IMG/VR virus record: IMGVR_UViG_2778261121_000004
DNA length: 8,610 nucleotides
DNA from: a virus
Taxonomy: Duplodnaviria > Heunggongvirae > Uroviricota > Caudoviricetes
Strand: one strand, 5' to 3'
How positions within the stretch are numbered: position 1 is the first letter of the stretch; every line of letters starts with the position of its first letter. Positions 988 through 5,161 of this stretch are shown here, piece by piece. The translations under genes were made by a program, and so were the position numbers. Under the pieces are notes generated by a model. It was not told the DNA's origin. It did no database searches and worked only from the letters and a program-made list of their open reading frames with translations.

Positions 988-1115
988 AACAAAAGCGGTG
1001 TTTTTGCTCGTTTATACCAGTTCAATGTTGTTCACATAACATTATGATTTTACTGGTTTACTCCTTATTTCTTGTTCATTACTTCGTGCTGTTGTTCGTC
1101 TTCGTACATAACAAT

Positions 1116-1182: not shown

Positions 1183-2406
1183 ATGGCCGGTGGAACGAAC
1201 AAATTAAGCGATGCATCATTGCGTAAAATGATAGGCCGTGCCAGTCCCTCAGACAACTTTTATGCAGATGGGGATGGCTTAAGCATAAAAGTGTCAAAGG
1301 TTGGTGTTTTAACCTGGTACTTCACCTGGCGAACAGGAGGACGCTCAACCGCTCCCCAGCGTCTAAAGCTGGGAAACTATCCAGATCTTTCTATAAAGGC
1401 CGCGAGAGAAAAGCGAGAACAATGCCGCGCGTGGTTGGCTGAAGGGAAAAGTCCAAAGCATCAGTTCAACATTACTATGCAAGAGACGCTAAAGCCGGTG
1501 ACAGTGAAGGAAGCTCTGGAGTACTGGATCACAGAGTACGCCAATGATAACCGGGCGAACGTCGAGCGACATAAGGCTCAATTTGGAAAACACATTTATC
1601 CTTACATCGGAAATCATCCCCTTGCCCTTTGTGAGACGCGCCATTGGCTAGAGTGCTTTGATCGCACAAAGAAAGAATCACCAGTAGCTTCCGGCTATCT
1701 CCTCCAGATGTGTAAGCAGGCGCTTAAATTCTGTCGTGTTCGTCGCTATGCAATAAGTAATGTGCTTGATGATCTCACCGTGCAGGATGTAGGCAAAAAG
1801 CAGAGAAAACGAGATCGGGTACATACCGATCAGGAAATATGTGATATCTGGCATGCCATGTCAGGCAAGAGGTTTAAACCTTACTATGCCTCGTTACTCC
1901 AGATCCTGATCATGTTTGGATGTCGTTCACAAGAGGCGAGATTATCAGAGTGGAGTGAGTGGGATTTCAAAAACTGGATCTGGACTGTTCCAAAAGCACA
2001 TAGTAAAGGTGGTGAAAAAATAGTTCGCCCGGTCCCGGAGGCCGCCAGACCTTTTATCGAATCCTTGTTCAAGCAACATAAAGATAGCGGTCTTCTGTTA
2101 GGCGAAATCAAGAAACCGGAAGCGGTCAGCCAGTGGGGGAGAACTTTGTATAAGAAGCTCGACCATACAGAGTCATGGACTCTTCACGATTTACGCCGGA
2201 CTTTTTCCACTACGCTTAATAATATAGGGATTGCACCACACATTGTAGAGCAACTCTTAGGGCATACCTTAGGCGGCGTGATGGCTATTTATAACCGAAG
2301 TCAGTACCTGCCTGAAAAACTTGACGCACTGAATAAGTGGATGGAACGGTTAGGATTGCTTACCGCCAATCATACGAATGTAACTATTCTAAAGGTAGCA
2401 AAATGA
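1183..2406 (+). CDS. int: Site-specific tyrosine recombinase/integrase, P4-like
   Basis: 407 aa. N-terminal arm-binding-type domain, and C-terminal catalytic signature: box I Arg (FGCRSQEA), HDLRRTF, LLGH, and catalytic Tyr in AIYNRSQY. SD AAAGG sits 9 nt upstream of ATG 1183. Confidence 0.92.
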   Translation: MAGGTNKLSDASLRKMIGRASPSDNFYADGDGLSIKVSKVGVLTWYFTWRTGGRSTAPQRLKLGNYPDLSIKAAREKREQCRAWLAEGKSPKHQFNITMQETLKPVTVKEALEYWITEYANDNRANVERHKAQFGKHIYPYIGNHPLALCETRHWLECFDRTKKESPVASGYLLQMCKQALKFCRVRRYAISNVLDDLTVQDVGKKQRKRDRVHTDQEICDIWHAMSGKRFKPYYASLLQILIMFGCRSQEARLSEWSEWDFKNWIWTVPKAHSKGGEKIVRPVPEAARPFIESLFKQHKDSGLLLGEIKKPEAVSQWGRTLYKKLDHTESWTLHDLRRTFSTTLNNIGIAPHIVEQLLGHTLGGVMAIYNRSQYLPEKLDALNKWMERLGLLTANHTNVTILKVAK

Positions 2407-3158
2407 CAAAAAGTGAATGGCCTCGCGTATATTACCCTCTTGATCTTGCTGCCAAAAAGATGAATTGTTCCACTGAGGATATATTGCATCTAGGGGCCAC
2501 AAATAGACTGGAAATATGCGCATATATTAAAGGTGTGGAATTGTCTCCCGATGGTTTTAACTTTAATGTTACTTTTGATGAAGATGACGAATATGTGTTA
2601 AATGAAATAACTGAAAATAAGTGTATTATAAGTGATCTATATCAGATAATACTTTTTGAATATAATGACAACACAATAATTAGCGAAGTTGATTTGAAAC
2701 CACGTGGGTGGTATGCGAATGATTTAAATGGTTTTTTTGCTATGTGTTCAAATGATTTGGTTGACATTGAACTTTCTGGAGGACTCACTTCCTTTGAAGT
2801 GAATATTAGTGAGTTATCTACCCCTAACATTGATGATAGAAAACCCATTGAAATTACCAATATTAATGATCTTGTCATTACTGAAAACATGCTGGTAGTT
2901 ATGGGCAAGGAGATAGAAAACTTTAATGCATCAGTTTCACCAAGTATTAGAGGTAAAATAGACGCCCCAAAAACAGAGGCTAAAAAAGCAGAACTAATAT
3001 ACTGCCTTTTAAAAATGATCCCTGAGTTATCTGGTGTTGATTTAGATAACACTCCGATAACGAAAATTACCTCCATGATAGAAGAAGTTGCAGCAAAAAA
3101 AGGTGTTGCTCTTCCGTCAACGCACTGGCAAACATGGAAAAGGTATTTACGGAGGTAG
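2403..3158 (+). CDS. Hypothetical protein, AT-rich cargo gene, translationally coupled to int
   Basis: 251 aa. ATG 2403 overlaps the int stop (ATGA, 2403-2406) and has an AAAGG SD. The central part is about 28-32% GC by eye, against about 50% for flanking genes. Composition is rich in D/E/N/I/K, which is protein-like. No motif recognised. Confidence 0.6.
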   Translation: MTKSEWPRVYYPLDLAAKKMNCSTEDILHLGATNRLEICAYIKGVELSPDGFNFNVTFDEDDEYVLNEITENKCIISDLYQIILFEYNDNTIISEVDLKPRGWYANDLNGFFAMCSNDLVDIELSGGLTSFEVNISELSTPNIDDRKPIEITNINDLVITENMLVVMGKEIENFNASVSPSIRGKIDAPKTEAKKAELIYCLLKMIPELSGVDLDNTPITKITSMIEEVAAKKGVALPSTHWQTWKRYLRR

Positions 3159-3160
3159 CA

Positions 3161-3190
3161 TGTGATATCACATATAGGTTGTGTGATATC
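3161..3190. promoter_or_regulatory. Operator-like palindrome TGTGATATCACA plus a repeated half-site, upstream of alpA
   Basis: Perfect 12-bp palindrome at 3161-3172. The half-site TGTGATATC recurs at 3182-3190, 21 bp away (two helical turns). Confidence 0.4.
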
Positions 3191-3254
3191 GAACATTGCT
3201 GAACGTGATTTAATAAGAATGCCCTCGAACTTCAATAAACGAGGGCAATACTTA

Positions 3255-3479
3255 ATGAACCAACTTAACACACACCAAAATCATTCCGATCGTATTATCC
3301 GTGAAACCGAATGCCGCCACATGACTGGCCTATGCCGTACTACTCGCTATCTCATGGAGAAAAAGGGGGATTTTCCGGCGCGTCGCCAGCTCGGGGGGCG
3401 TTCTGTCGGGTGGCTCTTATCGGAAATTACCACTTGGCAGTTAAGCCAACCTAAAGTAGAAACCGGCAAAGCGGCATAG
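3255..3479 (+). CDS. alpA: AlpA-family phage transcriptional regulator (excisionase-like HTH)
   Basis: 74 aa. The C-terminal half (GGRSVGWLLSEITTWQLSQ) matches the AlpA family's conserved (G)xRSVGW...EIxxW motif. SD GAGGG (3241-3245) lies 9 nt before ATG 3255. The track's longer GTG-3162 form would add 31 uncharacteristic residues and bury the palindrome in coding sequence. Confidence 0.8.
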   Translation: MNQLNTHQNHSDRIIRETECRHMTGLCRTTRYLMEKKGDFPARRQLGGRSVGWLLSEITTWQLSQPKVETGKAA

Positions 3480-3496
3480 GTGCGGATATGTCACAT

Positions 3497-3524
3497 AAAA
3501 CAAAAGCGGCCTTGCAGGGCCGCC
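3497..3524 (-). terminator. Rho-independent terminator for the minus-strand RHH gene
   Basis: GC hairpin GCGGCC (3507-3512) / GGCCGC (3519-3524) with a 6-nt loop. On the minus strand it is followed by TTTTGTTTTA (complement of 3497-3506). No T-run on the plus side. Confidence 0.45.
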
Positions 3525-3615: not shown

Positions 3616-3795
3616 TCAGCCTTTTGGCTCGATGCCACGTTGCTTCAGTTCTTTACGGACAATTCGTTTGATCCAAGCGGCTAAAGACTCGTCACCGTCC
3701 TGTTGTTGGGCTTTTTCCATTAATTCTCTGAGTTCCGGATCAAGCCGGAATTGGAATGGAGGATTGCCTCGCCTTTCATTTTTGTGTGTTGACAC
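3616..3795 (-). CDS. Small ribbon-helix-helix-like DNA-binding protein; candidate repressor of the island
   Basis: Absent from the ORF track. Minus-strand translation is VSTHKNERRGNPPFQFRLDPELRELMEKAQQQDGDESLAAWIKRIVRKELKQRGIEPKG (59 aa), with a beta-strand then two helices as in RHH proteins. GTG start at 3795 has an AGGTG SD 8 nt upstream. It is the only minus-strand gene in the island and is divergent from the downstream operon. Confidence 0.5.
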   Translation of the reverse strand: MSTHKNERRGNPPFQFRLDPELRELMEKAQQQDGDESLAAWIKRIVRKELKQRGIEPKG

Positions 3796-3841
3796 GTCAA
3801 TTACACCTGTTGTAGTGTGTTTATGTGTAATGACACATTAC
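3789..3841. promoter_or_regulatory. Divergent promoter/operator region between the RHH gene and the Icd-like operon
   Basis: Inverted repeats TTGAC-ac-GTCAA (3789-3800, overlapping the RHH start) and GTAATG-aca-CATTAC (3827-3841). TGACAC recurs at 3790-3795 and 3831-3836, and there are several TGTGT runs. Confidence 0.35.
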
Positions 3842-3924
3842 ATACAAATGACAAAAAAGACAACGCCCCGGAGTGCGGGAACACTGCCGAGGCGTCTAAC
3901 CAAGACGTTAAATGGAGTAACGCT

Positions 3925-4837: not shown

Positions 4838-5161
4838 ATGGCTAAAAAAATCAATCAGGTTAAACCTGAGGGCAAAACTCACCCTTTAATTGAGATTAAC
4901 ACCCGCTGGAAAGATAACTGGGGTATCAAAATCACTATTTGCAAGGTGGAAGAAAACCGCGTGATGTATATCCGCGACGGGTACGAACATGAATGCGTAT
5001 GCTCACCGGATCGCCTGCGTCGTGAGTTTTCTTTCCTCCCGGAAGAGAGCAAGGAATGTCAGGCTGCTGCCATCGCCAGAGGCCGTAAACGCGCCGCCGA
5101 ACTGCGTCATAGTTTGCCGGTTACTTTTGGATCGGCTGGCTGGGATAAGGGGCTGGTATGA
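4838..5161 (+). CDS. Small protein paralogous to the N-terminal domain of the downstream Rep ATPase
   Basis: 107 aa. SD AAGG sits 9 nt upstream. The motifs W-K-D-N-W-G-I-K-I and RHSLPVTFGSAGWD match W-E-E-D-W-G-L-K-I and RHNLPITYGSDGFD in the N-terminus of the 5158 gene. The stop overlaps the next start (ATGA). Confidence 0.65.
   Translation: MAKKINQVKPEGKTHPLIEINTRWKDNWGIKITICKVEENRVMYIRDGYEHECVCSPDRLRREFSFLPEESKECQAAAIARGRKRAAELRHSLPVTFGSAGWDKGLV

Follow-up and report, generated by a model that had tools for sequence, protein, structure and literature searches.

The stretch of DNA analysed here, 8,610 nucleotides long and called the window in the following, is identical in sequence to E. 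coli GPEC1186, where an island of about 8 kb is located with yhdJ on one side and fis on the other. Phage_integrase, Phage_AlpA and AAA_25/RepA helicase domains are encoded in this island. Its gene layout, small size and insertion site identify it as a Gram-negative phage-inducible chromosomal island (PICI) at fis (for the layout see PMC6092414 and PMC10111431; PICIs inserted at fis are documented in PMC10111431), and the same insertion site is used by two of the related islands (L002 and L004). The region between the integrase gene and ylcI comprises the following genes and features:

1183..2406, plus strand: int, tyrosine integrase; first gene of a presumed int-orf2 operon reading towards alpA
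2403..3158, plus strand: orf2, 251 aa, unannotated; candidate operator-binding regulator
3160..3173, no strand assigned: O1, perfect 14-bp palindrome ATGTGATATCACAT, with the core GTGATATCAC at 3162-3171
3183..3192, no strand assigned: O2, GTGATATCGA, 8 of 10 positions; intact left half-site, CGAAC box in place of the right half; 21 bp from O1
3193..3219, plus strand: O2-hairpin spacer, 27 nt; conserved in length and not in sequence, A-rich at its 3' end
3220..3247, plus strand: RNA hairpin; 5' arm TGCCCTCG (3220-3227), 3' arm CGAGGGCA (3240-3247)
3228-3239, plus strand: hairpin loop, 12 nt, AACTTCAATAAA; GAAC at 3227-3230, AAAC at 3237-3240
3241-3245, plus strand: alpA Shine-Dalgarno sequence GAGGG, within the 3' arm of the hairpin
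3255..3479, plus strand: alpA, 74 aa; master activator, excisionase-like regulator of the island; ATG at 3255, 7 nt past the stem
3616-3795, minus strand: YlcI/Arc-like gene (ribbon-helix-helix), convergent with alpA

Further genes of the island are Icd-like genes, a DUF4222 gene, a gene for a RepA-type helicase and a capsid-like gene.

The alpA product matches Pfam Phage_AlpA (1.4e-16), an excisionase/regulator family of PHROGs and the AlpA-family excisionase of PDB entry 8c3t. In PICIs alpA is the master activator; it is turned on by the helper phage, and AlpA then activates its own gene (PMC6092414, PMC11773190). The mechanism of this induction is called unknown in papers from 2018 to 2025 (PMC6092414, PMC11773190), and the existence of an island repressor in Gram-negative PICIs is called unclear (PMC6092414). 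Genes at the position of orf2 have been regarded as accessory (PMC11773190). In the literature searched we found no description of the orf2 family or of the cis-elements listed above.

Related islands were collected by four routes, namely DNA similarity among E. coli genomes, AlpA relatives with one genome per species, viral contigs with exact matches to the operator pair or to the inner hairpin, and contigs encoding orf2 homologues. Together these yielded 38 distinct alpA leaders. The identity of the orf2 protein falls to about 30% among some of the related PICIs, and the leaders share a nearly ungapped layout: orf2 stop, O1, 11 nt, O2, 27-29 nt, hairpin, about 7 nt, ATG. From a GTG at 3162 a mechanical ORF of 105 aa runs on into alpA in two cases, the window and L002, where no in-frame stop lies in between. 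Since such a stop intervenes upstream of the ATG in 36 of the 38 relatives, we regard the ATG at 3255 as the real start of alpA.

Several other features of the island were observed. A strong minus-strand terminator (GGCGGCCCTGCAAGGCCGCT and then a T run, 3505-3524) lies downstream of ylcI and just past alpA, which indicates that the two genes are convergently transcribed with a one-way terminator in between. The divergent control region of ylcI and an icd-like gene (3790-3845) contains the inverted repeat GTAATG-ACA-CATTAC (3828-3842) and TTGACACGTCAA, which are possible candidate operators of the Arc-like YlcI protein; there is no GTGATATCAC site in this region. About 50 bp upstream of int a doubled motif, GTGTAGTCAG-CG-GTGTAGTCAG, is present at 1117-1138. 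Most relatives examined keep it as GTGCAGTCAG or GTGTGGTCAG. It is similar to the lambda arm-type site CAGTCACT and probably represents arm sites of the integrase (cf. the doubled motif of PMC10111431). The 57-aa product of 7154-7327 is named 'antitermination protein NusG' by RefSeq, which looks like an over-annotation, and two pseudogene fragments of the Rha family are found at the right end of the island (L001 17660-18126).

A hairpin that covers the alpA ribosome-binding site

A stem-loop pairing with the Shine-Dalgarno sequence GAGGG of alpA had been noted in the first-pass annotation. The pairing is confirmed, with a stem of 8 bp and not of 7 bp as given there. The hairpin alone is notable within the window: its minimum free energy is -13.7 kcal/mol (z = -5.5), and none of 200 shuffles folds as well.

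The comparison of related islands carries the argument further. A hairpin is found at the same place in all 38 unique leaders, in 37 of them by script and in one (L147, with an internal loop) by eye. In an alignment of the 19 distinct sequences, 99.3% of the cells are paired and six of the eight pairs show changes on both sides; none of 500 shuffles is as good, and slid registers reach only 34-51%. All 12 wobble cells are G-U on the plus strand, and not one is the A-C that a structure of the minus strand would need. As G-U wobbles occur on the plus strand only, the constraint acts on plus-strand RNA, which is the sense strand of alpA and also the strand of read-through from int and orf2. The stem varies between islands (TGCTCTCG/CGAGAGCA, TCCACCTG/CAGGTGGA, CGTCCTCG/CGAGGACG, CCCTTG/CAAGGG, AGCTCCTTGCG/CGTAAGGAGCT), and the purines of the ribosome-binding site (GAGGG, GAGAG, AGGTGG or AAGGAG) are always part of the 3' arm. 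Judged by these compensatory changes, the hairpin is a conserved structured RNA in which the Shine-Dalgarno sequence is buried.

In many relatives the 8-bp core stem is directly followed by TTTTTTT, and the A-rich 5' flank extends the helix to 10-13 bp. Here the stem also looks like an intrinsic terminator, a designation for which the family qualifies in part, and the terminator-like structure ends 2-4 nt before the AUG. The hairpin of the window does not show the features of an intrinsic terminator: it has a loop of 12 nt and a tail, AATACTTA, without a U run, and it was not flagged by the terminator scan. Since the window has AAUACUUA instead of the U run, the masking role would dominate there. 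Translational masking may concern mainly transcripts that arrive by read-through of int and orf2. When the leader is folded from 3227, the final base of the 5' arm, almost no structure results (-2.2 kcal/mol).

Rfam yielded nothing for 3100-3300, and for the rest of the window only two chance hits below threshold. A likeness to lambda boxB (stem GCCCU/AGGGC) was rejected on account of the 12-nt loop and of GCUCUCG, which is found in most relatives. Two kinds of natural variants were seen among the relatives. In L019, L025 and L053 the loop is inverted as a unit (CGTTCGGCAACGTTCG for CGAAC..CGAAC) with the stem kept, which suggests a template-switch inversion and a loop whose sequence matters in either orientation. 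In E. coli MS 69-1 (L005, 4990-5022) a deletion joins a truncated acrE to the hairpin loop and 3' arm; int, orf2, the operators and the 5' arm are removed, leaving a natural 'unmasked' alpA leader.

The hairpin can be compared with the fold-back inhibition of transposase translation in IS10 and IS50, reportedly described by Davis, Simons and Kleckner in 1985 and by Schulz and Reznikoff in 1991. In these elements transcripts from outside are translationally silent, and those made from their own promoter begin within the repeat and so escape. As there, an upstream sequence pairs with the ribosome-binding region, and this is the closest mechanistic analogue of the hairpin. It differs in that the alpA hairpin is also terminator-like in many relatives and would guard the master activator of a satellite, not a transposase. 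Terminator/sequestor platforms likewise combine a GC-rich stem with a Shine-Dalgarno sequence in the 3' arm and, as in many of the relatives, a U run. However, the alpA hairpin has a 12-nt loop of conserved sequence, no U run in the window, no apparent ligand or sensor domain and no match in Rfam.

Paired operators and the orf2 protein

The 12-bp palindrome TGTGATATCACA that had been reported at 3161-3172 was read directly and recovered by a repeat finder; its actual extent is 14 bp. The second half-site, TGTGATATC, is present at 3182-3190 as reported, 21 bp from the first copy (start to start). Taken alone within the window, the palindrome is unremarkable and not significant, with perfect palindromes of at least 14 bp occurring in 45% of 1000 dinucleotide shuffles. 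For TGTGATATC with at most one mismatch, 6 matches were counted in the window against 1.8 expected, a number reached by 3 of 200 shuffles; a third copy at 1840, within int, is an incomplete site and not conserved. As the palindrome statistics within the window are not significant, support was sought by comparison with related islands.

The motif search that the first-pass annotation had proposed shows the pair to be kept. Two GTGAWWTCAC cores 21 bp apart stand right after the orf2 stop in every island with a window-type orf2 homologue, and in most of these the TGA stop itself lies within O1. O2 is a full GTGAWWTCAC in most relatives and always 21 bp from O1, the right half of the window's own O2 being degenerate. 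The flanks of the operators and the spacer between them are randomised across islands, and the 10-bp cores and the 21-bp spacing are kept. The central 2 bp of the cores vary (AT, AA or TT), as expected of centre bases that are not contacted. When 2.9 million viral contigs were scanned for exact copies of GTGATATCAC-N11-GTGATATCAC, 11 loci came up, 8 of which lie between an orf2 homologue and alpA. The other three matches are unrelated: 7-residue coding repeats in L020 and L021, and in L023 a terminator-like hairpin with a T run (2165-2195) after a Rha/antirepressor-like gene. The pair at a distance of 21 bp is also present in islands that were found without the motif, either by AlpA similarity (L002, L007, L009) or by orf2 homology (L147, L148, L149, L153), and no further operator copy occurs elsewhere in the islands that carry it. 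Between O2 and the hairpin most relatives have 27 nt; L019 and L025 have 29 nt. We rejected O1 and O2 as CRP sites by their geometry: the CRP consensus is TGTGA-N6-TCACA, and the spacer in the window is 2 bp (TGTGA-N2-TCACA).

The orf2 gene, whose ATG overlaps the int stop codon (ATGA), encodes a protein of three parts. The N-terminus is conserved (YYPLxxAAKKLxC..DI.H) and is modelled as a winged helix like those of Xis, MerR, BldC and RdfS, thus a predicted excisionase/MerR-like winged helix-turn-helix. The middle is beta-rich, poorly conserved and hypervariable. The C-terminus is a conserved module of three helices that ends in STHWQTWKRYLRR, P-x-THWQTWQKYLGR. An exhaustive profile search collected 312 representative relatives, many of which share the N-terminal part only or the C-terminal module only. 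No match to orf2 was obtained in sequence searches of Pfam, NCBIfam, PHROGs, PADLOC and the PDB, and tblastn found no orf2-like protein in 50,697 phage records.

The C-terminus is the part that goes with the operators. Tails of the THWQTWQKYLGR type (class A) occur with GTGAWWTCAC, even where the middle of the protein is different and longer (L147, L148, L149, L153), and across class A islands the O1 core stands at a constant distance from alpA. Tails of the type SGKTVASWL/YL (class C; L081, L087, L116, L143, L150-152) occur with two copies of GGRAWWTYCC (GGAAATTTCC), again 21 bp apart and in the same columns, and this pairing holds even with the sites inside the coding tail. In L008 an N-terminus nearly identical to that of L007 is joined to a third kind of C-terminal tail, and the operator is CGCAATATTGCG. 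Dyad sites on the same face of the DNA, conserved amid diverged flanks, are thus seen in class A and in class C and less precisely in L008. Fourteen islands of classes A and C were found independently of the motif, and in all of them the operator class matches the C-terminus of the adjacent orf2 protein.

The first-pass annotation had named the ribbon-helix-helix protein and AlpA as candidate binders of the palindrome, and neither tracks the operator class. Identities of 53-75% for Int and of 57-69% for AlpA do not follow it either, and a window-like YlcI is present in islands outside class A and missing from five islands of class A, so that YlcI, AlpA and Int were all rejected as specificity determinant of O1 and O2. 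Since the operator class follows the C-terminal module of orf2 and not Int, AlpA or YlcI, we assign the sites to that module and infer from this co-variation that O1 and O2 are read by it. The former label of orf2 as a 'cargo' gene then gives way to another one: its product is probably the regulator itself. The co-variation could also be plain physical linkage, the module being encoded 0-10 bp from the sites, and the modules of classes A and C align weakly in a profile comparison. The regulatory interpretation that had been put on the region is borne out by the relatives to the extent that operators and hairpin are both conserved there, as expected under selection.

In a number of islands a DUF6387 gene replaces orf2, and both GTGAWWTCAC and GGRAWWTYCC are missing from these. 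Some of them (L004 at 4955-4975, L039, L046, L073, L075, L113 and L128) have a single palindrome, TCACCGTCGCGGTGA, that is TCTCACCG-TCG-CGGTGATA, before the same hairpin. Its halves resemble those of lambda operators (TATCACCG), and the site spans 19 bp versus 17.

The operator pair resembles lambdoid OR1-OR2 in its palindromes, which are integral helical turns apart and beside the presumed cognate gene, and in specificity classes that are swapped as modules. It differs by having 10-bp cores 21 bp apart, by its place at the 3' end of orf2, the presumed regulator gene, and by the lack of a divergent promoter pair. For the orf2 protein, the closest analogue is the SaPI protein Stl (Rpr), the master repressor of Gram-positive PICIs. 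The proposed likeness is that of an island-encoded DNA-binding protein beside the integrase that holds the cycle off, with a hypervariable domain that could bind a helper-phage protein. Unlike Stl, orf2 is co-directional with its presumed target and not divergent from it, and there is no sequence similarity to Stl.

A possible switch for alpA

No sigma-70 promoter was found at a consistent position by a promoter scan and a weight-matrix scan of 31 leaders. A weak -10-like hexamer, AAGAAT, is present at 3215-3220, its last T being the first base of the stem, and in the leaders AAGAAT, TAGAAT or TTAAAT, all -10-like with weak scores, abuts the stem. In the spacer only the columns T85 and A87-T91 are conserved, and the A-rich tract before the stem can also be accounted for by its pairing with the U-rich spacer downstream. 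The fixed distance between O2 and the hairpin is best explained by promoter elements that bridge the two.

We give an even chance to the following switch, in which operators bound by the orf2 protein control alpA and the hairpin insulates alpA from int-orf2 read-through. Dimers of the orf2 protein would bind O1 and O2 through the C-terminal three-helix module, cooperatively and on one face of the DNA, and would control the transcription of alpA; if the promoter is read correctly, O2 would be near -40 and O1 near -61. The hypervariable middle of the protein is a possible sensor of a helper-phage protein. In every transcript arriving from int-orf2, the hairpin would tie up the Shine-Dalgarno sequence of alpA by pairing and, in relatives with a U run, would also terminate this transcript a few bases before the ATG, with the effect that the master activator is uncoupled from the expression of the integrase. 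A productive alpA mRNA might begin at the 5' arm or beyond it, as with the IS10 fold-back, from a weak promoter with the -10-like AAGAAT abutting the stem and the -35 region covered by O2. Alternatively, it might need the hairpin to be opened.

With no promoter predicted with confidence, both repression and activation by the orf2 protein are possible. We take repression to be the more likely of the two, given the analogy with Stl and the harm from AlpA overproduction (PMC6092414). The same parts with the opposite sign would mean that the orf2 protein at about -61/-40 activates a promoter lacking a -35 element, possibly only if modified by the helper phage, on the model of CRP class I and II sites or of lambda CI at PRM. 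A transcription start near 3227 would indeed put the centres of the sites at classic activator positions, the -35 position beside O2 is without similarity to TTGACA in class A islands, and helper phages act positively on alpA in EcCICFT073 (PMC6092414). We nevertheless hold activation to be unlikely: islands without orf2 show a better -35 at the same columns (TTGCTT-17-AAAAAT in L003), which suggests a promoter that can be occluded, and an activator made by the island together with int would need an additional off-switch.

EcCICFT073, the best-studied PICI, has no orf2, and a plasmid reporter of its alpA region reportedly responds to the helper phage in strains free of the island (PMC6092414), so that an island-encoded repressor is not universal. 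The alpA leaders of EcCICFT073 and of K-12 CP4-57 have another architecture, with weak anti-Shine-Dalgarno pairing (CUCUUU/AAAGGG in EcCICFT073), and for this reason the EcCICFT073 reporter data are not directly transferable to the islands described here.

A further reading concerns the GAAC boxes. The motif GAAC-N6-GAAC is enriched in the window, with 14 occurrences against 6.1 expected and none of 200 shuffles reaching 14. Clusters of GAAC/GTTC phased at 10 bp are located in the arm upstream of int (1010-1033 and 1074-1107, minus strand), in the alpA leader including the hairpin loop and the degenerate O2 half (3191-3240, plus strand; boxes in or at the spacer at 3191-3194 and 3201-3204) and near 7150 (7146-7169, plus strand). 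Pairs of the form TGTTCAT-N3-CGTTCAT are present upstream of int in most of about 20 related islands examined, with any type of int. In an E. coli O18 island (L156, 3335-3360) the 15-mer of the loop, CGAACCTTAGCGAAC, stands without stems about 130 nt upstream of alpA, and in EcCICFT073 (L155, 6190-6250) five phased GAACAA repeats follow just past int; in these two PICI types no gene lies between int and alpA, the hairpin is missing and GAAC-type repeats are kept. From this distribution, the boxes may be those of AlpA as an excision factor. If they are, one of them overlaps O2 in the window and would, as a speculation, let AlpA compete with the orf2 protein.

The excision factors P4 Vis, lambda Xis and P2 Cox also regulate transcription by way of phased direct repeats. 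AlpA belongs to the same fold family, and the phased GAAC repeats upstream of int and in the alpA leader extend the likeness; the difference is that the assignment of the boxes to this AlpA would be by deduction. The stem-loop might then be mainly a DNA element, its loop with the two GAAC boxes 10 bp apart being bound by AlpA, as excision factor and autoregulator, or by Int, and its stems serving as a terminator only. The enrichment of the motif, its sharing with the arm upstream of int, the stemless copy in the O18 island and the loops flipped as a unit in three islands all fit this account. We consider it improbable, as the strand-specific wobbles, the compensatory changes in the stem and the Shine-Dalgarno sequence fixed in the 3' arm are left unexplained by it, and it is compatible with the hairpin acting as RNA. 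As a separate candidate, a role of AlpA as Q-like antiterminator on its own upstream terminator was rejected. The Q-like AlpA of P. aeruginosa, with mapped residues to at least 142, bypasses terminators before its target genes and has a different fold (PMC9371919), which makes the shared name a coincidence. The AlpA of the window is a Xis-like protein of 74 residues, for which the PDB search gives only the excisionase 8c3t and not the P. aeruginosa AlpA complexes.

That the palindromes are read by a non-adjacent protein, either a helper-phage regulator or a host factor, with the island sensing the phage directly, appears very unlikely. The operator class follows the orf2 C-terminus without exception in the motif-independent islands of classes A and C, the phage records gave no orf2-like protein, and TGTGA-N2-TCACA is without the geometry of CRP; such a reader would on the other hand suit the dependence of alpA induction on the helper phage (PMC6092414, PMC11773190) and the likeness of the DUF6387-type palindrome to lambda half-sites. 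We attach least credence to O1 and O2 acting as RNA, with the 3' end of int-orf2 mRNA folded into a long stem-loop that would be a stabiliser, processing site or terminator: O1 and O2 do pair in the predicted fold of 3155-3290, are exact reverse complements in L149 (GTGAAATCAC and GTGATTTCAC), are still complementary in their degenerate inner halves in L148 and have a terminator-like counterpart in the unrelated pair with a T run in L023, yet hairpin arms need no palindromes and each site is palindromic in three separate sequence classes, the O1-O2 pairing is broken with half-sites kept in L007, L153 and the window, the class C sites are not mutually complementary and no U run follows O2 in the islands.

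Implications for phage satellites

The preferred reading, operators bound by the orf2 protein and a hairpin that insulates alpA, combines an operator pair with a hairpin for masking or termination, both of them known types of element. The window and its approximately 38 relatives define exact cis-elements in the 96 bases before alpA, and the orf2 family, uncharacterised and with three or more operator specificities, is named as their likely reader. How such islands are kept silent can thereby be put to the test, which should be relevant to those working on phage satellites. The hairpin represents a clean case, supported by covariation, of a structure that would insulate a dangerous gene from the operon before it, and annotators are warned that a gene between int and alpA is not necessarily cargo.

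More tentatively, and rather less likely than not, the orf2 family, until now annotated as hypothetical, might supply a large class of Gram-negative PICIs with both the master regulator they have been missing and a sensor of the helper phage, modular in build and working with a promoter-selective hairpin. Its modules would be the Xis-like N-terminus, which is conserved, a sensor domain, which is hypervariable, and a C-terminal part that reads DNA and can be swapped together with its operators. If this is true, the hairpin would make alpA translatable only from its own promoter.
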